A stretch of 63,007 bases of DNA, filler included, from Craspedostauros australis (Eukaryota): the NCBI GenBank assembly GCA_030167865.1. It is 12 parts of 12 records of this genome, joined end to end, with 100 filler letters (N's around TTAATTAATTAA, not from the genome) between each part and the next. Parts side by side here need not be neighbours in the genome. Positions count along the whole stretch, not along the records: positions 35,350 to 43,163 come from JALAGF010001613.1; 11 more parts are not named here. One strand, 5' to 3'. The notes beneath the pieces were generated by a model. That model saw nothing but the letters and a program-made list of their open reading frames with translations. It did no database searches and was not told the origin of the DNA. This document shows, one piece after another, positions 33,717 to 52,448 of this stretch. The position numbers and the translations under genes are program-made. The stretch's first letter is position 1; every line of letters starts with the position of its first letter.

Positions 33717-35249
33717 GGCGATTCGGCGGTGAACGGTTCCTTTCCTGACGTGTGCGTCGCGATGGTGCGGACACCCAGCTGGTTGATTTCCCATTCCTCC
33801 CATTCGGCACACGGGACAAGAACGTCGTCTGTGACACCAGATGCTGCCACCAAATTCGCCTCGTCGTCTCCAAACTTGACCTCGTGCGTTTGGCGCACCT
33901 TTTGCCCTTTCGCGCAGAAACGCTTCTTCGGCATTCCAGGGAAGCTCAGGACGCGCCCCTCAAGGCATTCTGCGTCCACCAAAACCGTGGTTGTTCCCGC
34001 GATGTTGCCAGCTTCCAATGCGTCGAAAAGTTGGTGTTCCGTCTTGATGTCGTTGTCCTCCAGCACATAGGCTCGCAACACAACAGTGATGTACGCAAAG
34101 TGCGTGTCAAGGCGGCCTTTACCTGTTTGGGCTTCGGTGTAGATCCAGGCCGCGATCTTGGGGACATTTCGTGTTCCGAGGTTCTTGTTCAGCACCAACG
34201 TGATCAGTGCGATGTGCTCGTAGCTCGCGAAACAACACGCATTATCGGATTGGATGACGATTTCGGTGACCGATGGAAGCAGTTTTCTCACCTGTTGTTG
34301 CACAATTTCGAGAAGCCCGCCAACTTGTAGGGTGTCTTGTGTTGGCCTCCCCTTTACGATGATATCGATGAAGCGATAAGTGAAAATGTCATTGTGACAC
34401 NTTATCACCATCGCGCCCAACAGAGACATGCCCTTCTTGCCCCAGTATTCTTGTTGAGCTTCGCCTTGGCCAGTCGGAAGAATTTTCTGCTTGTGGTCGA
34501 GCACCACATGCGCACGATCCTCTCTGTTGTTGATATTTTTGAGGTATTGCTCAATTTGTCCGAATTGAACCTTGCTGCGCACTTTGTGTGCCATGTACCA
34601 CAGTATTTCGTTGTTGAACCCTGGTGCAGCATTGAGCATTGACTCCAATTCTGTCGCGTGTTCCGCAAGGTGATCCTCCATAAGCATCGTGACGAAAGGG
34701 ACATATCGGTCGTCCACAAAACGCATCACCCCTGCACAACGGTTACATACTCCAGTGTGCTGTTTGTCTGTGGGGGCACAAGGCTGTTCATTGTTGTCAG
34801 TGGTGGTGTCATTGGCAGCAGCATGTGTCACACGAGTGATGTCAGGAATATCAATTGTGATGCTTGGAGTGTCGTTGGTGGCAGAAGGGATGTTGTTGGT
34901 TCGAGTGCTCTTCTTACGGAGCTTGTGCTTGTTGGTACGTGTTCTGGTTGGTTGGGATTGTTTCGTCGTTGTCTTCTTCTTCTCGTTGGGCGTGAGCGCG
35001 AATTGAGCTGAGTGGAGTGGGTCATCACACTCCATCTGCATGTGAGAGGCAGTGAATTCCCATTTGACGAAGACAACAAGAAGTTCCAACGCATACAAAA
35101 GTGACTCGGCTGTGCGCACATGCTGGGAAATCATGTCATTCTCGTCCTCGGCATCGTTTGTTGCAGGATACTTAGCCTTCAAAAGTGTGACGAGGCGCGA
35201 GATCGTGCGTTTGAGAGTGAGCATCGCCAGCAAGAAGTGGCTCTCGAAG
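33717..35249 (-). mobile_element. DNA transposon transposase fragment, Sola3-like DDD type (copy A), open at both contig ends
   Basis: LDHKQKILP...EAQQEYWGKKGMSL, QD, QSDNACCF, TEAQTGKGRLDTH give a D-D-D triad in the motif context I recall for Sola3-like transposases. Superfamily assignment is from memory. Confidence 0.6.
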
Positions 35250-35349: not shown

Positions 35350-35509
35350 GCGCGGTGGCTGTGCTAGCCGTCGTATCGTCACATTTTGGTTGCATTCGGG
35401 ATGTACCTGCTGCATGCCCCACATGTGGACACCGCAGGGCGCTCAGCCCACCAATCAGGAGCAGAGCCCATGATTGACCACCCTTGGGTACTGTTGCGCA
35501 GCGCCGAGG

Positions 35510-38500
35510 TCAAAAGAGGACCCGTTGTGCTTGTTCCTTTCGTCTCGGTCCTTGTTGTTGCTTCGTGAGCATGTCGGATAGGTTGGTTTCGGATGGTTCA
35601 TGCTGTACCACCAAGATACCCGCTGCGATGCTTTCTCTGACGAAGTGATATGCAATGGCATTGGCTTTCTTCCGCAATTGTGATTCTGGTAGTGAGGAGT
35701 TGTACACCACACTCTGATTGTCGACCCTTACATCCGCTGGACCATCTAGTGGAATGCCCATCATACGGAGTTTGTATCTCATGCCGATAATGATTTCAGT
35801 GGCGACCTTGAGCGCTGTGAATTCGCTGCCGAATGTGGATGTCTCAATGCTGTTCTGTTTCTTGCTGTACCATAGTATCGGTGATGTGTTTAAGAACAAG
35901 AGCACGCCGGTGCGTGAGCGTCGCGTGACGCGGTCACCTGCATGATCAGCATCAACAAAGCACGTCATTTGGACTTCCTTTCCGCGTGGCGGTGGCATGT
36001 CAGCAGGTAGTTGTTCATGAGCATCTGGGTAGAAATCGTTCCAGTTGGGTTGCATCACAGGCGGTTTATCAATGTATGCATCATCAAAAACAAGGCGAGA
36101 ACGATCGTGAGATTTGAGGTATGCGAACATGTGAAAGAGAGCATGCAAGTGGCCAATTCGTGGCGCAACACAGTACGATGCCATCATCGAGGTCTCGCAG
36201 CAAATGTCAATGCGTCCGAGCTCAACAGTCCAGCGCAGGATGCCAATCAATTGTTGATAGAACGTCGTTTGTTCAGTGTCACACAGTTGTGATCCGTCCA
36301 GTTCCGGTCGATAGTTGTTTGGTAGGACGCTGGGTGCTTTCGTCTTTAGTCGTAGACTGTGTTCAGTGAGGTATTTGGTGACGATCTTGAGAGCGGATTT
36401 GATGTATTCTTGTGAGCCCATGCTCCATTTGGGGCGTGATGGATCGGCAGTGAGATGGAATTGTGAGATAGTAGATCCAAGGTATGTTGTTGGAGGGCCA
36501 ATGGAACTCGGTTTGAGGAAAAAGTGTGAGTCAATCGCATCAAGGATGCGTCGTGGTTGTTTGGATACAGCAAGGATGTCGTCGGTGTACACGAGCACGT
36601 ATTCGTAATATTCTGACCCATCGCTCGCAACAGCTGGTTTCATCCAGACGTCGCTGTCAGCACGGCAGGAAATGAATCCCAACGAATCGCGCAGTGTTTC
36701 TGCCAGATGCGCTCTCCATGCTGCTCCACTTGATTTCAGTCCATACAGGGCCCGACAAATGATTGCGATCTTCCCCTGATCGGATCCGAATTCCGGACCA
36801 CACCGTGTGTATATGCGTTCCCGGCACGGGGCGTTCAGATACGCATTCTGAACATCCGCAGCAAGGATGTCCAAGTCATTGAGTGCAGCGATCAAGAACG
36901 CAATGCGTACGCTTTCGCGTGACACCACACTCGCGTATGTGATTGTTGCAGGCGCTTCCGTCATGTGTCCCCCAGCGACAAGCCGCGCCTTTCTTGTGAG
37001 GTCCACCTTGACGGCGAATATCATGTGGCATTCCATGTATTGGTAGCCCACGGGGTCAGGAGTGTCAAGTTCTTTGATGTCGAACGCTGGTCGCACGGCC
37101 TTCATTTCTTTTGCGATGGCTTGTCGCCACAGATCCGTGCCTGTAGCCGCGTCGATCGCAAGTGCATGACGCACTGAGGTAGGGAGCTCCACGCCAAACA
37201 TCTCGTTCTTTCGGACGTGTCGCCGCTTCGTTGCCATGATGATGCGTTGTCGTTTACGTAGGGTATGTGGCACCCACCACTTGAATGCAGGTTCGTTGAC
37301 AAGCTTGTTGTCTGCAGCATATTCAGCAACGCGTACTGGGTCGGCTTCTTTTGCGTCGCGTAGATGGATCCAGGATGTGGATCCGTCCTTCCATCGGATG
37401 CAGAGCTTCCAGCCTTTTGTGGATTTGGAGTGAGGAGAAGGGGAAGAAACAGAGGGCAAGCGTTTGTGATCGATGATTTCATCCATCAGCATAGTCGTGT
37501 ATCCGTCGTCGTCAATGCGCGCGTAGATATTCTCCGCAATTTGGTTGGCGCTGAACACTTCGTGGTGTCCATCAAGGAACTCCACTTCGTATTGTGCGGT
37601 GTCAAGCATAGGATTCGGATGGGATCGGCCGATGAGGTTGCCTTCTGTGTCTCGTTTGCGTTGTTTGACTGTTCCGTGTTGCATTTCGTCCCCTGTCGGT
37701 AGGATGACTTTGGTTGCGATGTATTTGTCGAAGATGGCACTGTCAACATCGTCTGGTTCCATGATTTGTTCCAGTGGTTCGGTGTTCTGCAGGATGTCGA
37801 TGTCTTCGGCGGTATCGTCAACGTCGTCGCCGTCGTCATCGATGGTGATGCCCTCCATTCGTTGCTTCCATTTGGATCGAAGTGTGTCCATGAACTCGTT
37901 GCATTTGTGTGCGATTACGTCGCTATGTGTGTCATCGTGGGAGAGAGGCAAAACAGAGGATTTAGAAACAACAACGCCGTTGGCAGTAAGGATGTACGAG
38001 CACATTGCGTCACCAACAGAGCGGCTTGGCCCAAGGTAGCGACCAAGTTGCTTGACGTTCATTGACGCGTCTTGAATGTTGATATACCACACGAAGTCGA
38101 ACCAGCCAAACTCAGCGATGTGAGAGATGTCAGCAGTATCACCGGACAATATGGTTGCGGGTGTCTCGCCATGAAGATCATGGATAGCGATCGCGGTGTG
38201 ACTGCGTATCTCGGCACAGTATTCGAAGCAGTAATCCCACAGGTATTCTGGTGTGTCGGTCGAAGTCATCAAGCGTCGGTAATGCCGTCGCAGTTCGCGG
38301 ATGGTGGCTTCTGCTTTGTTCTGATTGTGGATGTATGCTTCAATTGGTCGGATGGAAACTTGTGCTCTATGCAGCTTGCGACGGAATTCGCCAGCTACGA
38401 GCTCCTTGGCGTTGTCAGGGATGATGGTGTGTGGGATACCGTGGTCACGAAACAGTTCGTCGAGTGTGCGATGTGCTTCTTTGCGTTCTGCCATTGGGTA

Positions 38501-39376
38501 CACCCGGACCCAGTGAAACGGGGTACAGTAGATCATGGCGCACTTGTTGCCACGAATCGACTTGGTCTTTGCGTGCATGGTGTCGGCGTAGAGTTGGGTG
38601 TTGAGCCGACGATATCGTAGTTGCATGGCGTACGGATTGAGACGTCGTGTACCTGATGTATGACGAAAGTCACGAATGGCCAACTGTGTGGTTGCATCAA
38701 GTGTGCGTGATGCGGCTTCCGTTCCGATACGCCAACGTTGCGCGAGGACATCGGGTGTGATAGTCCCCTTTCGACTGGATGTATGGGTGCCATGGATGTT
38801 GATGGATGATATGGTTCGTTGTGATGAGAGAGATGCTCGGATGGCGTCTTCGTCGTCACCTGACGACCACTGGGATGGGTCCCATGTGGCCTCTTGTGTC
38901 ATCATGACGTGGATGCAATCACGGTCGGATTGGACTTCTTGTTGTGTTGGCTTCCTAATGTGGAAGTAGGATACGGTACCCTGTAACCGTAATGGGATGT
39001 GTAGGTCGTCGTCGGATGAGACCACAGAATGGTCTTCCTGTTTCCGTTCGTGCTCTTTAATCATGAGCAGAGGAACATCATTCACGACTATACCCGCAGC
39101 CCTCATTTGATTTGGGCACAACAAAGGATGTTCAAGACGAGGAAAGTAGATCGATTGTGGAAAGAACAGAATAAATGTTTGATATGTAATTGGATCATCG
39201 TATGCTATCGCAGCTGTGACGATTGGTGCATTATCGATGGATCCAAGTGAGTCAATAAAGGGGGTTGCAGTGACGGTTTGATCGGTCTGATGCACAATGT
39301 ACGCAGTATCACCAAAGCAACATGTATCCGCATGCGAATCGAGCTCTGCCCGTGGGGTATCAGATGACAGAGACAT
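35510..39376 (-). CDS. pol: Pol polyprotein (protease, integrase, chromodomain-like segment, RT, RNase H), copy 1
   Basis: PR LDSHAD; IN YADT/PDNA/QNKAE; RT KARLVAGGH, DVQNAYL, ALYGLKSSG, YTDD; RNase H FVDADHA, DNQSV, DMLTK. Confidence 0.96.
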   Translation of the reverse strand: MSLSSDTPRAELDSHADTCCFGDTAYIVHQTDQTVTATPFIDSLGSIDNAPIVTAAIAYDDPITYQTFILFFPQSIYFPRLEHPLLCPNQMRAAGIVVNDVPLLMIKEHERKQEDHSVVSSDDDLHIPLRLQGTVSYFHIRKPTQQEVQSDRDCIHVMMTQEATWDPSQWSSGDDEDAIRASLSSQRTISSINIHGTHTSSRKGTITPDVLAQRWRIGTEAASRTLDATTQLAIRDFRHTSGTRRLNPYAMQLRYRRLNTQLYADTMHAKTKSIRGNKCAMIYCTPFHWVRVYPMAERKEAHRTLDELFRDHGIPHTIIPDNAKELVAGEFRRKLHRAQVSIRPIEAYIHNQNKAEATIRELRRHYRRLMTSTDTPEYLWDYCFEYCAEIRSHTAIAIHDLHGETPATILSGDTADISHIAEFGWFDFVWYINIQDASMNVKQLGRYLGPSRSVGDAMCSYILTANGVVVSKSSVLPLSHDDTHSDVIAHKCNEFMDTLRSKWKQRMEGITIDDDGDDVDDTAEDIDILQNTEPLEQIMEPDDVDSAIFDKYIATKVILPTGDEMQHGTVKQRKRDTEGNLIGRSHPNPMLDTAQYEVEFLDGHHEVFSANQIAENIYARIDDDGYTTMLMDEIIDHKRLPSVSSPSPHSKSTKGWKLCIRWKDGSTSWIHLRDAKEADPVRVAEYAADNKLVNEPAFKWWVPHTLRKRQRIIMATKRRHVRKNEMFGVELPTSVRHALAIDAATGTDLWRQAIAKEMKAVRPAFDIKELDTPDPVGYQYMECHMIFAVKVDLTRKARLVAGGHMTEAPATITYASVVSRESVRIAFLIAALNDLDILAADVQNAYLNAPCRERIYTRCGPEFGSDQGKIAIICRALYGLKSSGAAWRAHLAETLRDSLGFISCRADSDVWMKPAVASDGSEYYEYVLVYTDDILAVSKQPRRILDAIDSHFFLKPSSIGPPTTYLGSTISQFHLTADPSRPKWSMGSQEYIKSALKIVTKYLTEHSLRLKTKAPSVLPNNYRPELDGSQLCDTEQTTFYQQLIGILRWTVELGRIDICCETSMMASYCVAPRIGHLHALFHMFAYLKSHDRSRLVFDDAYIDKPPVMQPNWNDFYPDAHEQLPADMPPPRGKEVQMTCFVDADHAGDRVTRRSRTGVLLFLNTSPILWYSKKQNSIETSTFGSEFTALKVATEIIIGMRYKLRMMGIPLDGPADVRVDNQSVVYNSSLPESQLRKKANAIAYHFVRESIAAGILVVQHEPSETNLSDMLTKQQQGPRRKEQAQRVLF

Positions 39377-39412
39377 GCTAACGGATGTGAGCCGTCTCGT
39401 ATGACCTTGCGG

Positions 39413-40900
39413 TCAGGAACGTCCTTGTTGGTTGCGACGGGTAGCCATGCTGCCAATTCCAGCCTGATTGTTGGTGCCAGATGGGCTACCGCCTTGATTA
39501 GCAGCATCAGTTGGTCCGTAATGGCCAGCCGTCTCTTCATGCGGACGTTTCGATGGTGTGTTTCTGCCCACCGACATGACCCCACGGCGTTTGTCTCGTT
39601 CAGCACGCATCTCAAGTGCCTTGGTCTTCTGTGTGGATGACATGACCGACCATTCGTCGGGTGAGTAATGGCGATCAGTAATGACCATGTTCGGATCATA
39701 TTTCTTGGGTTTGCCTTGACCTCCACGGCCACCCTTGCTTGGGGTTCCGTTACGGTTGCCACGACCGCCTTTGCCGCGATCCATCGAACCAATGGAGCGT
39801 CTGGGTGACGCGATCTGTTTATGGTCAATGACTTCGCTCAGGACATTGATGGCTCCTGGTAGGTCTTCACGAAGAGCTTCGTTGATCTTGATAGCAACGC
39901 ATGCACTGTCGAGGCGAGAATCGCGGATACCATCGAGGAAATGGCGCACTTTCGCCGCGTTCACGAGTGGTTCACCGCATCGTGCCATATCCTCGAACGC
40001 GCCTTTCATGATTTGTGCGTATCGTTCAAAGGTGAATTGACGCGATTTGCCGTCATAGAAGCTGGTAGCGATTGTCTTGGATGCAGCGGCCTTGGTGCGC
40101 GCCTGAAAGGAGTCACCGTGATAGTGTTCCTTGAGTGCGATGAATGCTGCACGACCATTGCGTGCACGCTCAAAGCCTTGGACCCATGCCCATGCAGGTC
40201 CGCCGTGAGTGACGTGGCGAACCACCTGCCACACCTTGGCGTTGTCGGCGTCGTATCGAATGCCTGCATGAATCGCCCGGTCAATGAGTTCCTCCTTCAT
40301 GGTTGGCACACCAAACCCGGTGTTGACTGGAGGCGTGCGATCTTCAGGTTTGCGTGCGTCCTCACGGATCACATAGGAGAGCGGAGCATCAAATGCACCA
40401 TGTGTATTCTCCAAGAAGTTCTGGATGTCTTCGAGACTGTCACGGACTCGGTCCACTTTGACCAGCCGTTCTGGCATATCCATCTCGGTTTCCTTCTTAA
40501 TGCGTTGTTCCTCGAGAAAGAGCTCCCATAACGCAACAAGGCGGTCCATTGTTGCCTCTGCTGCTGTGAACGGGCGTTGAATGCGTTGGAAATGGAATCG
40601 TGCGTAACGCAGTTGACGCAGTTTGGTCTCATGCACCCATCCGATGCTGATGCCTGGATCCTTGATTTGTGGTGGTACGTTGCCTTTGGCTCCTGCCTTG
40701 TAGGCGGGGTTTTCGATGAACCCGCTGCCGTCACAGATGCGCTTGCACAGGGCAGTAACGCCTTCATCGGTGATGGAGAGGAAGTCGTCGAATTTGGTCA
40801 GACCTTGATCTTCAAGAGCGTCGACGATGTCATCGTCTGGGAAACTCAGTACGTTCTTGCAATAGTCACGTATTTCGTTGGCGTTTGCAGCGGCTGCCAT
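39413..40900 (-). CDS. gag: Gag-like protein, 495 aa, copy 1
   Basis: Directly upstream of and in frame with pol; PLSYVIR, DNAKVW, NGRAAFIALKEHY.G, KVRHFLDGI; basic Gly-rich C-terminus. Confidence 0.88.
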   Translation of the reverse strand: MAAAANANEIRDYCKNVLSFPDDDIVDALEDQGLTKFDDFLSITDEGVTALCKRICDGSGFIENPAYKAGAKGNVPPQIKDPGISIGWVHETKLRQLRYARFHFQRIQRPFTAAEATMDRLVALWELFLEEQRIKKETEMDMPERLVKVDRVRDSLEDIQNFLENTHGAFDAPLSYVIREDARKPEDRTPPVNTGFGVPTMKEELIDRAIHAGIRYDADNAKVWQVVRHVTHGGPAWAWVQGFERARNGRAAFIALKEHYHGDSFQARTKAAASKTIATSFYDGKSRQFTFERYAQIMKGAFEDMARCGEPLVNAAKVRHFLDGIRDSRLDSACVAIKINEALREDLPGAINVLSEVIDHKQIASPRRSIGSMDRGKGGRGNRNGTPSKGGRGGQGKPKKYDPNMVITDRHYSPDEWSVMSSTQKTKALEMRAERDKRRGVMSVGRNTPSKRPHEETAGHYGPTDAANQGGSPSGTNNQAGIGSMATRRNQQGRS

Positions 40901-41394
40901 GTTGATGATGTTCGTGTGTAGCGTTGTTGCTAATGATAAGGGAAAGAAGTAGTGCAGGAAAAAGGATTTGTGTTGTCAAGAAAATCACACTGGGACATAG
41001 TGTGTTTTCGACGTGAAAATGGTTCAACGTGTGTTTTTCACGGTGTCAGTCCACGATGAGAAGCACAGACCGGGCAACAAGGCACGCGATCTTTTCGCTG
41101 ATGACAGCGTGTGTCTCATTAAGGATTTCCGCGTGACCTACGGTCGGTGCGTCCACCAGTGTCATCAACACCTCGCAACGCGAACGGTGAGATTGCATCC
41201 CGTTGACGCCGGTCACATTGCGTCAACACATCATGGTCAAAGAGGATGCAGCACAGTACAAGCAGTGCCGGCTTGGTGACGGTCCACCCTCGGAGCGGGG
41301 TCCCAGTATTATCGTCGCCTCTTCAGGCGGTCCCTGCACGCTCGCACATGCCCGCATGAGCGGATGAGAATGATAAACCAAGTTACGACACACG

Positions 41395-41537
41395 TGAAAC
41401 CGATTTAGAGTGAAAAAGAGTAAAGATGCAGATTATGAGTCTTATCGATGTCGTATGCGTCAGTGTGTTGACTGCATTACTGTGTCGTCCATGAATGGTA
41501 ACAGCGTCTATCGTGTAACGTCGTTTCAACGGTTTCA
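41395..41537 (-). repeat. Putative 5' LTR, 143 bp
   Basis: Bounded by the perfect 8-bp inverted repeat TGAAACCG...CGGTTTCA (TG...CA ends); lies about 490 nt upstream of gag and abuts unrelated transposase coding sequence. The partner LTR is not in the assembly. Confidence 0.75.
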
Positions 41538-43163
41538 TACATATCCCGGTTTGTCATCATCCAACACAGCCTCACTTTCTGTGTTGGCCTTCATTGTGTG
41601 AGCATCACACCACCTCTGATTCTCCAATTGCTTTTCTTCTCTCTGCAACTCCTCTTCTCTCTGCTCTTCCTCTGTTTTCGCTGGTGCATTGTGGATTGCC
41701 ACAATTGCGGATGCTGCTGTTGCTTTGTTTGTTGTGTTGGTTTCTGTCTTGGTGAGCACAGCCTCCTGGTTTTGTTTGCGTTGCTTGGCACTGTACGCTG
41801 CAAACAGCGACGCTTTCACGCGCATGGGATTTGCATGCAGTTGTACGTACCAGTCAGTTTTGGTTCTTTCGTTGCCCATCAATTGCTCGTGTGCTTCGTG
41901 TTCGGACGGTCTGTTTTTCGGGTCCTTCGCGGACGCTGCGCAGATGTCCTTCAATTTGTCCGCGATGTAGTCTGGTAGTTTGGCGTTGGTCCATGTTGTT
42001 TTGCTCGCCCAGCCTGGCACTGCGAGTGGTGGGTGTTCGGTTTCCGCCGTCTGGTCTTGTAGTGCTGTGGTGTGATCGGATGGTAGATGTTGTTGTCCGT
42101 CTTGGAGGGCTTTGCCGATCGTGAACGCCTTGCTCTCTGTTGCTGTACGCCCCATTTTGCGTGTCTTGTCCGTCTTCCTGAATGATTCGGACGTAATTGC
42201 CGGCTTGACGGACGTGAATGTTTTGTCCGCGATGACACCCAACTCGTTGATGATCCACCCTTCCCATTCAGCGCTCTTCACCACGACGTCTTCCGTGATT
42301 CCAGATACAGCCACCAACCGCGCCTGGTCATCATCGTACTTCACCTCGTGAGTCATACGTACCTGTTGTCCAGATGCGCGGAATCGTTGTTTTGGTGCGC
42401 CTGGAAGCGTCGTGATGTTGCCTTCGAGGGTCTCTGCGTTGACAAGTACCGTTGTCGTACCTGCGATGTTACCAGCTTGGAGCGTGAGGAAGACTTGGAA
42501 AGGGGTCTTGATGTCCTTGCCACTTTGCACGTATTTTCGCAGTACACGTGTGATGTACGCGAAGTGGGTGTCCAGCATGCTCTTACCNGTTTGGGCCTCC
42601 GTGTANATCCANGCGATGATTTTAGCTGCTTTTCGTGTCGCAAGGTTCTTGTTGAGTACCGATGTGATGAGCGCGATGTGCTCATGACTGGCAAAGCAAC
42701 ACGCGTTGTCGCTCTGTAGGATGATTTCAGTCACGGATGGGTGAATGTCTTTGACCTTTTGTTGCACGATGTCAAGTAGTCCGCCAACTTGAAGAGTGTC
42801 TTGAGTCGGTCTTCCACCGACCACAATGTCGATGAACCGATAAGTGAAAATGTCATTGCGACACGTGATGACCATTGCCCCAAGCAGTGACATTCCCTTC
42901 TTCCCCCAATATTCTTGTTGGGCTTCGCCTTGGCCTGTCGGTAGAATTTTTTGCTTATGGTCAAGTACCACATAGGCTCTTTCAGGCTTATCATTGAGTG
43001 TGGATTGATAAAATTTGATTTGTTGGAATTGAACTTTCGCACGCACTTTGTGAGCCATGTATTTAACGATTTCATTGGCGAATCCTGGCGCCGCCGCAAG
43101 CATTGATTGCAATTCGTCTTTGTGTTCTGCGAGTTCGTTGTCCTTAAGCATTTTGACAAAAGG
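41535..43163 (-). mobile_element. Sola3-like transposase fragment (copy B); 5' cut by linker, 3' apparently interrupted by the copia LTR
   Basis: Same motifs as copy A (LDHKQKILP, YWGKKG, QSDNACCF, GKSMLDTH) plus C-terminal PGWASK. Its stop codon is the first TGA of the LTR. Confidence 0.6.
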
Positions 43164-43263: not shown

Positions 43264-43423
43264 GCGCGGTGGCTGTGCTAGCCGTCGTATCGTCACATTT
43301 TGGTTGCATTCGGGATGTACCTGCTGCATGCCCCACATGTGGACACCGCAGGGCGCTCAGCCCACCAATCAGGAGCAGAGCCCATGATTGACCACCCTTG
43401 GGTACTGTTGCGCAGCGCCGAGG

Positions 43424-46400
43424 TCAAAAGAGGACCCGTTGTGCTTGTTCCTTTCGTCTCGGTCCTTGTTGTTGCTTCGTGAGCATGTCGGATAGGTTGG
43501 TTTCGGATGGTTCATGCTGTACCACCAAGATACCCGCTGCGATGCTTTCTCTGACGAAGTGATATGCGATGGCATTGGCTTTCTTCCGCAATTGTGATTC
43601 TGGCAGTGAGGAGTTGTACACCACACTCTGATTGTCGACCCTTACATCCGCTGGACCATCCAGTGGAATGCCCATCATACGGAGTTTGTATCTCATGCCG
43701 ATAATGATTTCGGTTGCGACCTTGAGCGCCGTGAATTCGCTGCCGAATGTGGATGTCTCAATGCTGTTCTGTTTCTTGCTGTACCATAGTATCGGTGATG
43801 TGTTTAAAAACAAGAGCACGCCAGTGCGTGAGCGTCGCGTGACGCGGTCACCTGCATGATCAGCATCAACAAAGCACGTCATTTGGACTTCCTTTCCGCG
43901 TGGCGGTGGCATGTCAGCAGGCAGTTGTTCATGAGCGTCGGGGTAGAAATCGTTCCAGTTGGGTTGCATCACAGGCGGTTTATCAATGTATGCATCATCA
44001 AAAACAAGGCGAGAACGATCGTGAGATTTGAGGTATGCGAACATGTGAAAGAGAGCATGCAAGTGACCAATTCGTGGCGCAACACAGTACGATGCCATCA
44101 TCGAGGTCTCGCAGCAAACGTCAATGCGTCCGAGCTCAACAGTCCAGCGCAGGATGCCAATCAATTGCTGATAGAACGTTGTTTGTTCCGTGTCACACAT
44201 TTGTGATCCGTCCAGTTCCGGTCGATAGTTGTTTGGTAGAACGCTGGGTGCTTTCGTCTTTAGTCGTAGATTGTGTTCGGTGAGGTATTTGGTGACGATC
44301 TTGAGAGCGGATTTGATGTATTCTTGTGAGCCCATGCTCCATTTGGGGCGTGATGGATCGGCAGTGAGGTGGAATTGTGAGATAGTAGACCCAAGGTATG
44401 TTGTTGGAGGGCCAATGGAACTCGGTTTGAGGAAAAAGTGTGAGTCAATCGCATCAAGGATGCGTCGTGGTTGTTTGGATACAGCAAGGATGTCGTCGGT
44501 GTACATGAGCACGTATTCGTAATATTCTGACCCATCGCTCGCAACAGCTGGCTTCATCCAGACGTCGCTGTCGGCACGGCAGGAAGTGAATCCCAACGAT
44601 TCGCGCAGTGTCTCCGCTAAGTGTGCTCTCCATGCTGCTCCGCTGGATTTCAGTCCGTATAGGGCCCGACAAATAATTGCGATCTTCCCCTGATCGGATC
44701 CGAATTCCGGACCACATCGTGTGTATATGCGTTCCCGGCACGGGGCGTTCAGATACGCATTCTGAACATCCGCAGCAAGGATGTCCAAGTCATTGAGTGC
44801 AGCGATCAAGAACGCAATGCGTACGCTTTCGCGTGACACCACACTCGCGTATGTGATTGTTGCAGGCGCTTCCGTCATGTGTCCCCCAGCGACAAGCCGC
44901 GCCTTTCTTGTGAGGTCCACCTTGACGGCAAATATCATGTGGCATTCCATGTATTGGTAGCCCACGGGATCAGGAGTGTCAAGTTCTTTGATGTCGAACG
45001 CTGGTCGCACGGCCTTCATTTCTTTTGCGATAGCTTGTCGCCACAGATCCGTGCCTGTAGCTGCGTCGATCGCAAGTGCATGACACACTGAGGTAGGGAG
45101 CTCCACGCCAAACATCTCGTTCTTTCGGACGTGTCGCCGCTTCGTTGCCATGATGATGCGTTGTCGTTTGCGTAGGGTATGTGGCACCCACCACTTGAAT
45201 GCAGGTTCGTTGATGAGCTTGTTGTCTGCAGCGTATTCGGCAACGCGTACTGGGTCGGCTTCTTTTGCGTCGCGTAGGTGGATCCAGGATGTGGACCCAT
45301 CCTTCCATCGGATGCAGAGCTTCCAGCCTTTTGTGGATTTGGAATGAGGAGAAGGAGAAGAAATAGAGGGCAAGCGTTTGTGATCAATAATTTCATCCAT
45401 CAGCACAACCGTGTATCCGTCGTCGTCAATGCGCGCGTAGATGTTCTCCGCGATTTGGTTGGCACTGAACACTTCGTGGTGGCCATCAAGGAATTCGACT
45501 TCGTATTGTGCAGTGTCAAGCATAGGATTCGGATGAGAGCGGCCGATGAGGTGGCCTTCTGTGTCTCGTTTGCGTTGTTTGACTGTTCCATGTTGCATTT
45601 CGTCCCCTGCTGGTAAAATGACTTTGGTTGCGATGTATTTGTCGAAGGTTGCACTGTCAACATCGTCTGGTTCCATGATTTGTTCCAGTGGTTCGGTGTT
45701 CTGCAGGATGTCGATGTCTTCGGCGGTATCGTCAACGTCGTCGCCGTCGTCATCGATTGTGATGCCCTCCATTCGTTGCTTCCATTTGGATCGAAGTGTG
45801 TCCATGAACTCGTTGCATTTGTGCGCGATTACGTCGCTATGTGTGTCATCGTGGGAGAGAGGCAAAACAGAGGATTTAGAAACAACAACGCCATTGGCAG
45901 TAAGGATGTACGAGCACATTGCGTCACCAACAGAGCGGCTTGGCCCAAGGTAGCGACCAAGTTGCTTGACATTCATTGACGCGTCTTGGATGTTGATATA
46001 CCACACAAAGTCAAACCAGCCGAACTCAGCAATGTGAGAGATGTCAGCAGTATCACCGGACAATATGGTTGCCGGTGTTTCGCCATGAAGATCATGGATG
46101 GCGAGCGCAGTGTGACTGCGTATCTCGGCACAGTATTCAAAACAGTAGTCCCATAGGTACTCTGGTGTATTTGTCGAAGTCATCAACCGTCGATAATGCC
46201 GTCGCAGTTCGCGGATGGTGGCTTCTGCCTTGTTCTGATTGTGGATGTATGCTTCAATTGGTCGGATGGAGACTTGTGCTCTATGTAGCTTGCGACGGAA
46301 TTCGCCGGCTACGAGCTCCTTGGCGTTGTCAGGGATGATGGTGTGTGGAATACCGTGATCACGAAACAGTTCGTCGAGTGTGCGATGTGCTTCCTTGCGT

Positions 46401-47290
46401 TCCGCCATTGGGTACACCCGGACCCAGTGAAACGGGGTGCAGTAGATCATGGCGCATTTGTTGCCACGAATCGACTTGGTCTTCGCGTGCATGGTGTCGG
46501 CGTAGAGTTGGGTATTGAGCCGACGGTATCGTAATTGCATGGCGTATGGGTTGAGACGGCGTGTTCCCGACGAATGACGAAAGTCGCGGATGGCTAGTTG
46601 TGTTGTTGCCTCAAGAGTGCGTGATGCGGCTTCCGTTCCAATGCGCCAGCGTTGCGCGAGAACATCGGGTGTGATAGTCCCCTTTCGATTGGATGTGTGG
46701 GTGCCATGGATGTTGATGGACGATATGGTTCGTTGTGATGAGAGAGATGCTCGGATGGCGTCTTCGTCGTCCCCTGACGACCACTGGGAGGGGTCCCATG
46801 TGGCCTCTTGTGTCATCATGACGTGGATACAGTCACGATCGGATTGGACTTCTTGTTGTGTTGGCTTCCTAATATGGAAGTAGGAAACGGTGCCTTGTAA
46901 TCGTAATGGGATGTGCAGGTCGTCGTCGGATGATATCACAGAGTGGTCTTCCGTTTTCCGTTCGTGCTCTTTGATCATAAGCAGAGGAACATCATTCACG
47001 ACTATACCCGCAGCCCTCATTTGATTTGGGCATAACAAAGGATGTTCAAGACGAGGAAAGTAGATCGATTGTGGAAAGAAAAGAATAAATGTTTGATATG
47101 TAATTGGATCATCGTATGCTATCGCAGCTGTGACGATTGGTGCATTATCGATGGATCCAAGTGAGTCAATAAATGGGGTTGCAGTGACAGTTTGATCGGT
47201 CTGATGCACAATGTACGCAGTGTCACCAAAGCAACATGTATCCGCATGCGAATCGAGCTCTGCCCGTGGGGTATCAGATGACAGAGACAT
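43424..47290 (-). CDS. pol: Pol polyprotein, copy 2 (1288 aa)
   Basis: Same length and motifs as copy 1, with few amino-acid changes. Confidence 0.96.
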   Translation of the reverse strand: MSLSSDTPRAELDSHADTCCFGDTAYIVHQTDQTVTATPFIDSLGSIDNAPIVTAAIAYDDPITYQTFILFFPQSIYFPRLEHPLLCPNQMRAAGIVVNDVPLLMIKEHERKTEDHSVISSDDDLHIPLRLQGTVSYFHIRKPTQQEVQSDRDCIHVMMTQEATWDPSQWSSGDDEDAIRASLSSQRTISSINIHGTHTSNRKGTITPDVLAQRWRIGTEAASRTLEATTQLAIRDFRHSSGTRRLNPYAMQLRYRRLNTQLYADTMHAKTKSIRGNKCAMIYCTPFHWVRVYPMAERKEAHRTLDELFRDHGIPHTIIPDNAKELVAGEFRRKLHRAQVSIRPIEAYIHNQNKAEATIRELRRHYRRLMTSTNTPEYLWDYCFEYCAEIRSHTALAIHDLHGETPATILSGDTADISHIAEFGWFDFVWYINIQDASMNVKQLGRYLGPSRSVGDAMCSYILTANGVVVSKSSVLPLSHDDTHSDVIAHKCNEFMDTLRSKWKQRMEGITIDDDGDDVDDTAEDIDILQNTEPLEQIMEPDDVDSATFDKYIATKVILPAGDEMQHGTVKQRKRDTEGHLIGRSHPNPMLDTAQYEVEFLDGHHEVFSANQIAENIYARIDDDGYTVVLMDEIIDHKRLPSISSPSPHSKSTKGWKLCIRWKDGSTSWIHLRDAKEADPVRVAEYAADNKLINEPAFKWWVPHTLRKRQRIIMATKRRHVRKNEMFGVELPTSVCHALAIDAATGTDLWRQAIAKEMKAVRPAFDIKELDTPDPVGYQYMECHMIFAVKVDLTRKARLVAGGHMTEAPATITYASVVSRESVRIAFLIAALNDLDILAADVQNAYLNAPCRERIYTRCGPEFGSDQGKIAIICRALYGLKSSGAAWRAHLAETLRESLGFTSCRADSDVWMKPAVASDGSEYYEYVLMYTDDILAVSKQPRRILDAIDSHFFLKPSSIGPPTTYLGSTISQFHLTADPSRPKWSMGSQEYIKSALKIVTKYLTEHNLRLKTKAPSVLPNNYRPELDGSQMCDTEQTTFYQQLIGILRWTVELGRIDVCCETSMMASYCVAPRIGHLHALFHMFAYLKSHDRSRLVFDDAYIDKPPVMQPNWNDFYPDAHEQLPADMPPPRGKEVQMTCFVDADHAGDRVTRRSRTGVLLFLNTSPILWYSKKQNSIETSTFGSEFTALKVATEIIIGMRYKLRMMGIPLDGPADVRVDNQSVVYNSSLPESQLRKKANAIAYHFVRESIAAGILVVQHEPSETNLSDMLTKQQQGPRRKEQAQRVLF

Positions 47291-47326
47291 GCTGACGGAT
47301 GTGAGCCGTCTCGTATGACCTTGCGG

Positions 47327-48814
47327 TCAGGAACGTCCTTGTTGGTTGCGACGGGTAGCCATGCTGCCGATCCCGGCTTGATTGTTAGTGCCGGTTTGGC
47401 TGTCGCCTTGATTCGTAGCGTCACGTGGCCCATAATGCCCATCTGTCTCGTCGTGAGAGCGTTTCGATGGTGTGTTCCTGCCCACCGACATGACCCCACG
47501 GCGCTTGTCTCGTTCAGCACGCATCTCAAGTGCCTTGGTCTTCTGTGCGGATGACATGACCGACCATTCGTCGGGTGAGTAATGGCGATCAGTGATGACC
47601 ATGTTCGGATCATATTTCTTGGGTTTGCCTTGACCTCCACGGCCACCCTTGCTTGGTGTTCCGTTACGGTTGCCACGACCGCCTTTGCCGCGATCCATCG
47701 AACCAATGGAGCGTCTGGGTGACGCAATCTGTTTATGGTCAATGACTTCGCTTAGGACATTGATGGCTCCCGGTAGGTCTTCACGAAGAGCTTCGTTGAT
47801 CTTGATAGCAACGCATGCACTGTCGAGGCGAGAATCACGGATACCATCAAGGAAATGGCGCACTTTCGCCGCGTTCACGAGTGGTTCACCGCATCGTGCC
47901 ATGTCTTCGAATGCACCTTTCATGATCTGTGCATATCGTTCGAAGGAGAACTGACGCGATTTGCCGTCATAAAAGCTGGTTGCAATCGTCTTGGATGCTG
48001 CTGCCTTGGTGCGTGCCTGAAAGGAGTCGCCGTGATAGTGTTCTTTGAGTGCGATGAATGCTGCACGACCATTGCGTGCGCGCTCAAAGCCTTGGACCCA
48101 TGCCCATGCGGGTCCGCCGTGTGTGACATGGCGAACCACTTGCCACACTTTCGCGTTGTCTGCGTCGTAGCGGATGCCTTCATGGATTGCACGATCGATC
48201 AGTTCCTCCTTCATGGTGGGTACACCAAATCCGGTGTTGACTGGAGGCGTGCGGTCTTCAGGTTTGCGTGCGTCCTCTCGGATCACATAGGAGAGCGGAG
48301 CATCAAATGCACCATGTGTATTCTCCAAGAAGTTCTGGATGTCTTCGAGACTGTCACGGACTCGGTCCACTTTGACCAGCCGTTCTGGCATATCCATCTC
48401 GGTTTCCTTCTTAATGCGTTGTTCCTCAAGAAAGAGTTCCCACAATGCCACAAGGCGATCCATTGTTGCCTCTCCTGCTGTAAACGGGCGTTGAATGCGT
48501 TGGAAATGGAATCGTGCGTAACGTAGTTGACGCAGCTTGGTCTCATGCACCCAGCCGATGCTGATGCCTGGGTCCTTGATTTGTGGTGGTACATTGCCTT
48601 TGGCTCCTGCCTTGTAGGCGGGGTTTTCGATGAATCCACTACCATCGCAAATGCGCTTGCACAGGGCAGTAACGCCTTCATCGGTGATGGAGAGGAAATC
48701 GTCGAATTTGGTCAGGCCTTGGTCCTCAAGGGCATCGACGATGTCATCGTCTGGGAAGCTAAGTACGTTCTTGCAATAGTCACGTATCTCGTTGGCGTTT
48801 GCAGCGGCTGCCAT
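47327..48814 (-). CDS. gag: Gag-like protein, copy 2 (495 aa)
   Basis: ATG at 48814 corresponds to 40900 of copy 1; the longer ORF-track start is not conserved in copy 1. Confidence 0.88.
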   Translation of the reverse strand: MAAAANANEIRDYCKNVLSFPDDDIVDALEDQGLTKFDDFLSITDEGVTALCKRICDGSGFIENPAYKAGAKGNVPPQIKDPGISIGWVHETKLRQLRYARFHFQRIQRPFTAGEATMDRLVALWELFLEEQRIKKETEMDMPERLVKVDRVRDSLEDIQNFLENTHGAFDAPLSYVIREDARKPEDRTPPVNTGFGVPTMKEELIDRAIHEGIRYDADNAKVWQVVRHVTHGGPAWAWVQGFERARNGRAAFIALKEHYHGDSFQARTKAAASKTIATSFYDGKSRQFSFERYAQIMKGAFEDMARCGEPLVNAAKVRHFLDGIRDSRLDSACVAIKINEALREDLPGAINVLSEVIDHKQIASPRRSIGSMDRGKGGRGNRNGTPSKGGRGGQGKPKKYDPNMVITDRHYSPDEWSVMSSAQKTKALEMRAERDKRRGVMSVGRNTPSKRSHDETDGHYGPRDATNQGDSQTGTNNQAGIGSMATRRNQQGRS

Positions 48815-49184
48815 GTTGATGATGTTCGTGTGTAGTGTTGTTGCTGATGATAAGACGAAGGAAGGAAGTAGTGAAGGAAGAAGGGTTTTTGTGGTGTCAA
48901 GAAAATCACACTGGGACATGGTGTGTTTTCGACGTGAAAATGGTTCAACGTGTGTTTTCCGCGGTGTCGATCCGCGATGAGAAGCACAGACCGGGCAACA
49001 AGGCACACGATCTTTTCGCTGATGACAGCGTGTGTCTCAGTAGGGATTTCCGTGTGACCTACGGTCGGTGCGTCCACCAGTGTCATCAACACCTCGCAAT
49101 GCGAACGGTGAGATTGCATCCCGTTGACGCCGGTCACATTGCGTCAACACATCATGGTCAAAGAGGATGCAGCACAGTACAAGC

Positions 49185-49401: not shown

Positions 49402-50841
49402 GTGGACGACTGCACGGATCACTGCTGGAGTTTCTTTCTCAAGAACAAAAGTGATCAACCAGGATACATCAAACGATTCGTCCANACGATCAAGTCACAG
49501 ACNGGTGACCAACAGATCANCTTCCGAGGTGACAACAGCGGAGAGAACAAATCCACGCAGGATATTCTCATCGATGCAGGACTCAACGTGAAATTCGAAT
49601 TCACGGCATCGAACACGCCGCAACAGAACGGTAGGGTAGAACGCAAGTTCGCGTACCTCTGCACCAAGATCCGCTCCATGCTCAACAGAGCACAGCTCAA
49701 CGAAGAGTATAGGCATGGCCTGTGGGCAGCAGCTGCGAGCACTGCCACCGCTATCGCCAACATCACTGTAGCGAAGAACCAGAAGGAGTCACCACATCGC
49801 CAATTCTTTGGCAACGATCCACCATATGCGGAAGCACTCCGCACGTTTGGAGAGGTGGGTGTTGTGAAGACTGCCTACGGCGGGATCACCGCCAAACTCA
49901 AGAATAGAGGAGAAGAGATGGTGTTCATCGGATATGCACACCAACATGCATCACGAGTATACAACATGTACAGACCATCCACCAAATCACTGGTCTGTTC
50001 TCGCGACATCAAATGGCTCAATCAATCATACGGACAGTTCCGTGGCTGGGCACCAGCACCGAACATATCCAGCGAAGCAGGAACGATGGACGCAGACGGC
50101 TTCACAACCATCGGACGGAAGGGAGCAATGCCAAGGACGGCAACGCGTCGAACATCAGAAGCAAAGAGAGTATCTTTCGCCAACACGAACAAATACCACA
50201 TCCTATCAGACAGTGATGATGAGGATGACGAGGTCGATGGAATAGTAACGGAATTAACCCACAACAACGACGAAGATCGGAACGAATCCAATCATGAGGA
50301 TGACAAGATCCTACCATCCGGCGATGAAGCCAACGATGACACAGGCATCACTCCTCGAAACACACCAGCAAGGTCTACACATGACACACCATCGAGACCT
50401 CCACCAAGCAAACCAAGCAAGCGTGACATAGCTAGAAAGGAGAGGATCCGACGTCACGAAGCACAAGGCAGGAAGGGAGAAGCCAATCCCAAACCAACTA
50501 CAGGGAAGAGTATTCCCAGAGCTCTGCGTGAGCTCGCAGACTTCAATGAACGAGGTCGAAAGGAAGAAGGCTATGAGAGCGAATCATCATCCAATGAAGA
50601 TAGTGACGAACTCAACGACGAGATAACTGATGAATCTAACAACGAAACTGCAGATGACGAAGAAATCATAGACGAAGATGAAGAGATCGAGATCACTCAT
50701 CATAGCACAACAGGACTATACAGGATGAACGCAATCATCACCGAGGCACCAGCGATTGACATCGGACTGTCGATGCAGGACAAGAACAAGGAACCAGAGA
50801 AGCACATCGAACCAACGACATTCGATGGAGCCTTCAATCAT
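49402..50841 (+). mobile_element. Ty1/copia family B fragment: integrase core, SH3-like region and acidic linker
   Basis: VDDCT..CWSFFLKNKSD, RGDNSGE, TPQQNGRVER, FIGY, SRDIKW; homologous to 61320..62600. Confidence 0.9.
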
Positions 50842-50941
50842 NNNNNNNNNNNNNNNNNNNNNNNNNNNNNNNNNNNNNNNNNNNNTTAATTAATTAANNN
50901 NNNNNNNNNNNNNNNNNNNNNNNNNNNNNNNNNNNNNNNNN
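50842..50941. other. Artificial contig linker
   Basis: N44-TTAATTAATTAA-N44. Confidence 0.99.
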
Positions 50942-52448
50942 TTGCCTCTTGCTGAACCATTCAATGGGTGTCTGGTTCATCAGATGCAGCACTCCAGTGG
51001 CGGATCTGCCAGTCACTTTGCAGTGTAGCAAGTTGGCGTCGACGAAAGATGTCATGCGCACAGGCTTGCCCTTGGGGGACGGAACGTCATGGGGAAGCTC
51101 CTCTCCTGTGTTTCCATACACAGAGTAGAGCCAGTCATGCTTGGGGGCTTCGAAGTGGTCTTCATGCTGTGGGATTCCGGTACGGAAGCGGATGGAGCCG
51201 TCTGGATGCTTCCGAAGGTAGCCGTAGATACGCTTGGCCCGTTCGAGGTGGCCTTGACGAGGAGATGCTCTGAATCGAGCCAGGGTCATCACGGCAACGG
51301 AGATATCGAATCTTCCAAGCGAGATGCACCACTGAAGGGCACCGATCAAGGACATGAACTTCCTCTTGTCCAATTCTGAGAGCTCTGGTGAGGTATCCAA
51401 CTCTGGACTGTCGGATTTGTCCAGAGGACAGCTTGCCTTCTTTGGGAGTGCGCCAAACATGCGTTCGAAGTTTGTCAACATCCTTTTGATGTAGGAATGT
51501 GGACTCATCTTCAGAGTGCCATCTGGATCTCGACCAAAGTCAGCTCCCAGATGATATTCGATGGGACCGACGCCTTTCAGCTTGTAGCCGTACTTGGATG
51601 TCAATGCGTCAAAGAAGGAATGGGGATCCTTCATGACTGCCATCAAGTCGTCCACATAGACGCAGATGTACTCCCAGTGGGAGCCAGCATCATGCATCCA
51701 GACGTCAGGGTCAGAACGACATTGGGTGAAACCCATGTCTCTGAGAGTGTCGGAGAGAGCTTCGTGAAAACGAGCTCCAGAGGTACGCAGGCCATAGAGC
51801 GCTTTGACGATGCGCATCATATGGCCGGCATGCTCACCGAACTCTTCACCAGCAATGAAGCAGATCTTCTCCTTGGTGAATGCTTCAAGGTAAGCATTAC
51901 CGATATCACCCACCATGGTAGAGAGCCCATTGAGCTCACCTGCCAGGAGAGCGATGCGGAGAGAGCGGAGGCTGACAACCCCAGCATAGGACATGTCCTT
52001 GCACTGGTCTGTCAGATGACCTCCTGCAACACATCGAGCCTTGTGCCGTAGGTCATGCTTGACTGCATAGACCCACTGAAGGCGGATCTTCTGGTATCCA
52101 TCTGGTGGAGTCTGTTGCTTGCCCAGAGACTCGAATGTCCCATAGTCGAACAGCTGCTGCATTTCCTTCCGTTCAGCATCAGCCCAAAGGGTGTTGCCGT
52201 TCTTCCAGTCAAGCTGCATGGCCTCTTGATGGTTCCTGGGCACTTGCACACCAAATTGGAAGGTCGGGATGTTGCCGTGTGTCCGAGTCTTGGCGACATC
52301 AACTTGGCGTTGCATCCTCTCTTGGCGTTGGGAGAGGCGCTGGAGGCGCTTCCATCCCGGTTGCCCGAGGAGACCATGTTTGCGACCATACGCAGCACAT
52401 GTGGCAGGGTCGTCTTGGATCATTGCCGAAAGAGGCTCAGACGAAGTG
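50942..52448 (-). mobile_element. Ty1/copia family C fragment (CoDi-like RT and start of RNase H)
   Basis: KARCVAGGH, DIGNAYLE, ALYGLRTSG, YVDD, FVDAN; related to but clearly distinct from family A pol. Confidence 0.93.

Follow-up and report, generated by a model that had tools for sequence, protein, structure and literature searches.

A conserved in-frame UGA separating gag from pol in a putative Ty1/copia-type retrotransposon from Craspedostauros australis suggests stop codon readthrough

The DNA analyzed here, referred to as the window, is a stretch of 63,007 nucleotides (nt) from Craspedostauros australis (assembly GCA_030167865.1) that carries two copies of a retrotransposon with the open reading frames (ORFs) gag and pol. 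In both copies, gag, a short spacer, and pol share one frame that is broken by a single UGA. A translational bypass carrying the ribosome from gag into the protease would be the simplest reading of this arrangement, and we consider it likely, judging by sequence comparison, that Gag-Pol is made by readthrough of the UGA. The coordinates of all features are collected in Table 1.

The first-pass annotation of this DNA had linked the gag stop to pol in frame through 12 open codons, and rereading of the sequence agrees for both copies. It had further described the spacer of copy 2 as one base different and the adjacent gag tail as more diverged. Alignment bears out both descriptions: the spacers differ solely by a synonymous T to C change at the base matching 39380 (GTT to GTC), and 27 differing bases within 39590-39455 of the gag tail are followed by none from 39454 to 39381. 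The UGA between gag and pol is the only in-frame TGA other than the terminal one in the 1797 codons of the element, and pol of copy 1 ends in TGA at a C-terminus common to its relatives. TGA is therefore a genuine terminator in this element. As a separate observation, an ORF of 207 codons in the +1 frame crosses the gag-pol junction in both copies (39205-39828 and 47119-47742, both on the minus strand); such an ORF has probably arisen by chance, the coding sequence being rich in GC.

The two copies are selected, working lineages rather than decayed ones, because the UGA was kept despite 289 differences and dN/dS, the ratio of nonsynonymous to synonymous substitution rates, is low. The window consists of 12 contigs joined by N44-TTAATTAATTAA-N44 linkers (11 places, 16624-61319), an arrangement without adjacency meaning. 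Copy 1 lies on the contig at 35350-43163 and copy 2 on the contig at 43264-49184; as these are separate contigs joined by a linker, the copies are not chromosomal neighbours. The entire second contig matches the first at 95.1% nucleotide identity over 5921 nt. The 289 differing columns of the 5921 include 282 substitutions, 222 of them transitions, and the coding part is free of frame-breaking indels. By the Nei-Gojobori method, the synonymous divergence (dS) between the copies is 0.33 for gag, with a dN/dS of 0.035, and 0.17 for pol, with a dN/dS of 0.045. Strong purifying selection has acted on both ORFs since the copy lineages split, and the UGA is kept in both. Divergence along the alignment (35350-41263 versus 43264-49184) is patchy, with 0 to 21 differences per 90 nt and difference-free runs of up to 212 nt, which suggests recombination among family members.

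A predicted protease-like fold lies directly past the stop. The 174 amino acids (aa) that follow it form a confident AlphaFold2 fold, with a predicted local distance difference test score (pLDDT) of 90.8. The best structural matches of this domain are retroviral and Ddi1 proteases, which are weak matches (Foldseek E 0.1 or worse; none against the PDB at E up to 0.001); a VIA comparison gave a Z of 5.8 and a root mean square deviation of 4.3 over 96 aligned residues. Model residues 19-114 align with residues 19-99 of the protease of human immunodeficiency virus 1 (HIV-1). The motif DSHAD stands at 39340-39326 on the minus strand, its first Asp being the 25th codon past the UGA; across the family, the position of the catalytic Asp ranges from 20 to 89 codons past the stop. 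This active-site-like motif, which is not the usual D-S/T-G-A, is nearly invariant in the family, with the variants DSNCD, DSGSD, DTHAD, and DNHAD. The first 20 residues after the stop are modeled with low confidence and the spacer is predicted to be disordered. We also considered whether the 12-codon spacer is an obligatory part of the folded protease; this was rejected on account of that low confidence, and the positional match to HIV protease numbering is the sole remaining hint that the spacer belongs to the protease.

The read-through protein was also compared with known families. RVT_2 (PF07727; E 1.3e-16, residues 1291-1480) is the sole Pfam family recognized, and pol of copy 1 aligns end to end with 22 relatives. 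Pfam gave no integrase match in copy 1; PF00665 is present in three relatives in which gag and pol are fused (P0034, P0035, P0040). The gag protein matches no Pfam family; its homologues are the N-terminal halves of fused gag-pol proteins and the upstream ORFs of relatives. Look-alikes of pol in a protein Atlas include a cluster auto-named ‘Blackbeard family protein’ and Bacillariophyta clusters, at 0.99, which is a lead only. They suggest possible membership in the same broad group as the CoDi / Blackbeard elements. Taken together, the data suggest that the elements on both contigs belong to a single Ty1/copia-type family of the diatom ‘CoDi/Blackbeard’ kind.

Comparative evidence on the UGA comes from metagenomic relatives. 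Metagenome contigs were scanned with the pol alignment, giving 79 loci from the best 80 of at least 563 matches, which are not a random sample. A protease-region match was present at 42 of these loci; nine lacked the protease N-terminus, three had a pol frame open to the contig start, and 30 had readable junctions. With copy 1 added and copy 2 dropped, these make up the set of 31 junctions used below. Upstream of the protease motif, the nearest stop in frame is TGA in all 30 readable relatives and in both copies. The open run before it, in the same frame, mostly extends for 233-593 codons; the exceptions are L052 (7), L077 (33), and L035 (121), and the runs of L061 and L064 are shortened by the contig start. 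Homology to gag was detected upstream at 23 of the 30 loci, in the pol frame every time and in another frame at none. At the end of pol, by contrast, this set has mixed stop codons (TGA 12, TAA 11, TAG 3, with five running off the contig), so the restriction to TGA is a feature of the gag-pol boundary. A scan of viral contigs with the pol alignment returned four pattern matches, none of them a relative. On these comparative grounds, the in-frame UGA is an old, selected trait of the family.

The base that follows the UGA is also biased. It is C in 22 of the 31 junctions; counted by lineage group, the figure is 16 of 23 (binomial 2e-6 against 22.6% C). The bases after the pol terminators are A7 C6 T8 G5. 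The codon after the UGA is CUN in 16 of 31 junctions, including CUA in eight, CUG in four, and CUC in three, and is never CGG; five relatives (L002, L008, L009, L014, L077) have UGA-CUAG.

Coding sequence continues across the stop. A G-x-x-M-T/S-R-R motif precedes the stop and R-R-V/L follows it in UGA forms, and these motifs are common to the fused proteins; the spacer region of relatives has a shared stretch rich in R/RR-V/L. A protein search with the junction region retrieved 59 proteins, mostly pol-only ORFs of 1280-1480 aa that start shortly before ELDSHAD. In seven of the 59, the stop has been lost and gag and pol are fused into a single protein of 1801-1844 aa, with the G-x-x-M-T/S-R-R motif at the former boundary (P0020, P0026, P0031, P0034, P0035, P0036, P0040). 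In a FastTree phylogeny of 37 pol rows, from which L010 and L051 were excluded as too short, UGA forms occur across the entire tree and the seven fused forms make up one clade, so that a single change suffices to account for them.

Programmed bypass of an in-frame UGA, as the first-pass annotation had proposed, is thus supported by the UGA of both selected copies and of 30/30 relatives and by the bias toward C at the next base. We infer readthrough as the bypass route, as well as its efficiency and any role of RNA structure. Most ribosomes would end at the UGA and release Gag. A minority would decode the UGA by a near-cognate tRNA and continue via the short linker into protease, integrase, and reverse transcriptase, yielding Gag-Pol; the ratio of Gag to Gag-Pol would then be set by bypass of the UGA. 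The signal would be the UGA itself together with the 3' cytidine, resembling the leaky context of type II readthrough, and a stem-loop a few bases downstream (39407-39362) may contribute.

Table 1. Positions of the gag-UGA-pol features and predicted RNA structures in the window
Feature	Position	Strand	Basis and remarks
gag ORF, copy 1	39416..40900	-	495 codons, ATG 40900; dN/dS 0.035 versus copy 2
In-frame UGA, copy 1, followed by CCG	39413..39415	-	sequence read; ends gag after ...TCC
Spacer, copy 1, twelve sense codons PQGHTRRLTSVS	39377..39412	-	between UGA and first pol-frame ATG (39376-39374)
pol ORF, copy 1, from first ATG	35510..39376	-	1288 codons plus TGA; read-through start 39412
Retropepsin-like protease domain (predicted)	38972..39358	-	AlphaFold2 pLDDT 90.8; weak structural matches
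gag ORF, copy 2	47330..48814	-	sequence read
In-frame UGA, copy 2	47327..47329	-	sequence read
Spacer, copy 2	47291..47326	-	one synonymous difference from copy 1
pol ORF, copy 2	43424..47290	-	ATG at 47290; same arrangement as copy 1
Hairpin 1, UGACC-GCAA-GGUCA	39402..39415	-	-7.0 kcal/mol; z -3.9 alone
Hairpin 2, GACGG-loop-CCGUU	39380..39396	-	-4.2 kcal/mol; equalled by 35/200 shuffles
Alternative 3' stem-loop, forms with hairpin 1 open	39362..39407	-	-14.9 kcal/mol; z -1.94; 8/200 shuffles
11-bp core hairpin, ATG 39376 in 3' arm	39370..39398	-	-11.9 kcal/mol; z -2.86; 3/200 shuffles

Several findings weigh against readthrough as the route. In the closest known case, the Ty1/copia element Tca2 of Candida albicans, a 300-nt junction gave no readthrough in yeast, according to the part of Forbes 2007 (PMC2194720) drawn on here. 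The UGA-CCG of copy 1 is the sole CCG among the 31 junctions and conforms to neither CUA nor CGG. The pol terminator of the same element, UGA-CCU, shares UGA-CC with the gag stop, and context alone therefore does not single out the latter. Among the codons after the UGA, 37 of 39 are identical between the copies compared with 0.87 overall, a level matched by 23% of windows, and synonymous-site conservation after the stop shows no enhanced trend in the copy pair or in nine other pairs. Over the 83 to 146 nt downstream, predicted stability does not exceed that of shuffles (z +0.08 to +0.67), and the 60-nt windows past the stop of copy 1 rank only between the 13th and 22nd percentiles for the element. 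By the AlphaFold2 model, a protein starting at Met13 would retain the folded protease domain. In addition, the 30 relatives with readable junctions were drawn non-randomly, from the best 80 of at least 563 matches.

The contig ends warrant description in their own right. A blastn self-comparison detected no direct repeat inside the contig at 35350-43163 that could represent long terminal repeats (LTRs), and both contigs stop 160 nt past pol; the LTRs may just be unassembled. The copies do not differ in these 160 nt, and in both of them the 53 codons from the pol terminator to the contig end contain no further in-frame stop (35350-35512 and 43264-43426, minus strand). For the UGA-CC of the pol terminator, a second leaky stop and chance in GC-rich sequence are both conceivable.

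Local RNA structure downstream of the stop varies among lineages. In 10 to 12 of the 31 junctions, against an expectation of about three, the 60-nt stretch at or just past the stop ranks within the most stable tenth of windows of the element concerned, and several relatives have strong stem-loops beginning 2-10 nt past the UGA. Others, among them L001, L002, L020/L021, and L045/L050/L060, show no such structure. One lineage, that of L008, L009, and L010, has a 17-pair stem-loop with three compensatory pairs among the three sequences (L009:1784-1850, L008:1133-1199, L010:6496-6562); its outer stem begins 3 nt and its main stem 10 nt past UGA-CUA/CUC. In the window element, the stem-loop at 39407-39362 may be a helper of readthrough.

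This variation leads to a more ambitious variant, which we regard as improbable but worth stating: an old clade of diatom-type copia elements would depend on obligatory UGA readthrough without a shared RNA stimulator, each lineage having its own local structure. The UGA would then have been kept while more than one substitution accumulated per pol site, without ever giving way to UAA or UAG. In such a clade, the GNRA hairpin that sequesters the stop of the window element could act before the ribosome arrives, by slowing its approach or binding a factor. Alternatively, by analogy, a trans-acting protein of the element could damp termination; the reverse transcriptase of murine leukemia virus (MuLV) acts on eRF1 to this effect. 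If true, these elements would amount to a natural collection of algal readthrough enhancers, each independent of the others.

Bypass at the RNA level is unlikely. In this scenario, splicing or editing would remove the stop from a minority of transcripts, or a promoter at the junction would produce a pol transcript, and there are precedents for both routes: the ratio of Gag to Pol is regulated by splicing in Drosophila Copia, and Tca2 has a weak or minor promoter at its junction (PMC2194720, as far as drawn on here). At the junction studied here, coding conservation reaches the stop from both sides, with motifs 5 to 9 codons away, so that any intron would have to be of much less than the usual length, and the one GT...AG pair that encloses the stop locally covers 15 nt. 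The constant UGA and the C that follows it would also be left unexplained.

We assign little probability to termination-reinitiation, or internal initiation, at the AUG at 39376, which would produce free Pol without Gag. This AUG is in frame 12 codons past the stop in both copies and lies in the 3' arm of the favoured hairpin, and a Met is present at some point between stop and protease motif in 23 of the 31 junctions. In the AlphaFold2 model, the folded protease follows the Met encoded at 39376, so that reinitiation would be possible for this element. However, eight of the 31 junctions have no Met before the protease motif, and neither the exclusive use of UGA nor the C bias is expected under reinitiation. 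Peptide motifs run across the stop, and one clade has fused both ORFs. From general knowledge of retroelements, free Pol would moreover need another route into particles, a point raised in Forbes 2007 (PMC2194720, in the part drawn on). Of the two routes that the first-pass annotation had left side by side, readthrough is therefore supported and reinitiation disfavoured, given the eight junctions without Met.

The first-pass annotation had favoured structure-assisted readthrough, with a GCAA hairpin holding the UGA (hairpin 1) and a second GACGG/CCGUU hairpin (hairpin 2) as the stimulatory signal; this specific model now appears very unlikely. Both hairpins can be drawn, both are unchanged or improved in copy 2, and hairpin 1 is locally stable, with only 1/200 shuffles as stable when it is folded alone. 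Within a 47-nt stretch, 31/200 shuffles are as stable (z -1.09). Hairpin 2 is no better than shuffles and is displaced in longer contexts: it is absent from the minimum free energy and centroid folds of 83, 123, and 146 nt, in which the 11-bp hairpin at 39398-39370 forms instead.

The G-U to G-C change in copy 2, which had been offered as support for hairpin 2, proves to be an ordinary synonymous transition. A single U to C change at a third codon position is expected by chance, because 222 of the 282 substitutions are transitions. Base 39380 is an unpaired bulge in the favoured 11-bp hairpin, whose energy is therefore the same in copy 2. The 123-nt fold contains a further, mutually exclusive long-range stem, in which GGUCAU pairs with sequence near 39308; at that place, too, copy 2 has a U to C change that makes a G-C pair out of a G-U pair. 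As one-sided changes of this type ‘support’ competing folds alike, the change at 39380 carries no weight. The 74-nt difference-free run around the stop is likewise not unusual, as 12 of 288 runs are at least 72 nt long and the longest is 212 nt.

Pairing of the stop codon itself is not a family trait. The stop of copy 1 is paired with a probability of 0.95, a value equalled or exceeded by 15% of the control TGAs of that copy; the stops of L002, L025, and L014 are also paired in predicted folds. Over the 31 junctions, the mean pairing probability is 0.58 versus 0.565 for control TGA triplets (Wilcoxon p 0.78). Across relatives, the junctions thus retain the UGA (30/30) and lack family-wide stop pairing. 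Furthermore, with the UGA in the ribosomal A site, the 3' arm of hairpin 1, which ends 11 nt past the UGA, would be inside the mRNA channel, and the hairpin would have to be melted at that point. The stop-containing GCAA hairpin is very probably not the stimulator, and the specific hairpin model is not supported.

A complete lack of bypass, with defective copies or with UGA read by the host as a sense codon or as selenocysteine, is extremely improbable: the contigs have no LTRs by which completeness of the element could be demonstrated, and some diatoms possess selenoproteins, but gag and pol are under strong purifying selection, the UGA is kept in 30/30 relatives, the element has a single internal in-frame TGA in 1797 codons, TGA closes pol at a conserved C-terminus, and the 7814-nt contig at 35350-43163, from which the 3' end of the element is missing, has no Rfam match at E up to 1, selenocysteine insertion sequence (SECIS) families included.

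The rest of the window contains further elements and host sequence. Among the other contigs are some with eukaryotic genes (bromodomain, ankyrin, amine oxidase) and with more copia fragments. Nearby small contigs at 49402-50889 (plus strand) and 50894-52423 (minus strand) hold copia-type fragments with an SH3_retrovirus domain and RVT_2. On the contig of copy 1, an ORF of 538 aa lies 5' of gag (41535-43151, minus strand). It matches no Pfam family. At the DNA level, it aligns with 33770-34699, on a different contig, at 70.6% identity over 941 columns. It may belong to the element, be carried by an LTR, or be a member of a host gene family.

To our knowledge, an in-frame stop is the rarest known way by which Ty1/copia elements set the ratio of Gag to Gag-Pol, and Tca2 is the sole studied example, itself unexplained. 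The same architecture is fixed here across a large and diverse aquatic (diatom-type) group, always with UGA and mostly with C or CUA next. This group provides many natural variants for testing what makes a UGA leaky in stramenopile algae. It also has practical value for the annotation of diatom genomes: the UGA junction is a way to tell working from dead copies, and annotators should be warned that a ‘gag’ and a ‘pol’ called as two genes on such contigs are one expression unit. No new mechanism is revealed.

Comparison with known systems places the window element nearest to Tca2 in architecture. Tca2 has gag-UGA-pol in frame and makes pol from full-length RNA, so that its stop must be bypassed (Forbes 2007, PMC2194720, in part). 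Both elements belong to the same superfamily, and in both gag and pol share one frame with a single UGA. After its UGA, Tca2 has a purine-rich 8-nt spacer and a potential bulged-stem pseudoknot (PMC2194720, same part). The 8 nt after the UGA of the window element, CCGCAAGG, are in contrast not purine-rich (4/8 purines). For the window element, the evidence comes from sequence comparison; Tca2 is a fungal element and probably only distantly related.

Diatom elements of the CoDi / Blackbeard kind are of Ty1/copia class and measure 5-8 kb (Maumus 2009, PMC2806351), and in these respects resemble the window element. The part of Maumus 2009 drawn on here neither states which stop codon is present and whether it is conserved nor proposes readthrough. 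More generally, the open-access literature searched yielded no description of conserved UGA readthrough in diatom copia elements.

Among retroviruses, the in-frame UAG between gag and pol of MuLV is read through at a few percent and sets the ratio of Gag to Gag-Pol (PMC2194720, PMC3159437, both in part). The window element likewise has an in-frame stop between the gag and pol of a retroelement. It differs from the type III signal of MuLV, which comprises UAG-G, an 8-nt spacer, and an essential compact pseudoknot, in that all 32 junctions have UGA. No pseudoknot of the MuLV type is evident at the window junction, no search having been aimed at pseudoknots.

Type II readthrough provides the other point of reference. 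As described in the part of Firth 2011 (PMC3159437) drawn on here, it combines UGA-CUA or UGA-CGG with an extended 3' stem-loop, and occurs at the nsP3/nsP4 junction of alphaviruses and in tobra-, furo-, and pomoviruses. A conserved stem-loop of this type would begin about 7-12 nt past the stop and show covariation as well as synonymous-site conservation. In both window copies, C likewise follows the UGA, no context is more frequent in the family than UGA-CUA (8/31), and several lineages of the family have a stable stem-loop 2 to 10 nt past the stop. Unlike type II signals, the window element has CCG as its next codon rather than CGG or CUA, and no enhanced synonymous-site conservation past its UGA. 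Whereas alphavirus stems enclose loops of 100-150 nt, its stem-loop is short and local, and not significant against shuffles in longer contexts. Loughran and colleagues are said to have described readthrough at UGA-CUAG in mammalian genes in 2014. The window element departs from these genes in its context, UGA-CCG, and in being a retroelement rather than a host gene; five of its relatives do have UGA-CUAG. In-frame stops between gag and pol (MuLV, Tca2) and viral UGA-C/CUA contexts with 3' stems were thus already known, and the conservation of the UGA throughout this family is a modest comparative addition to them.

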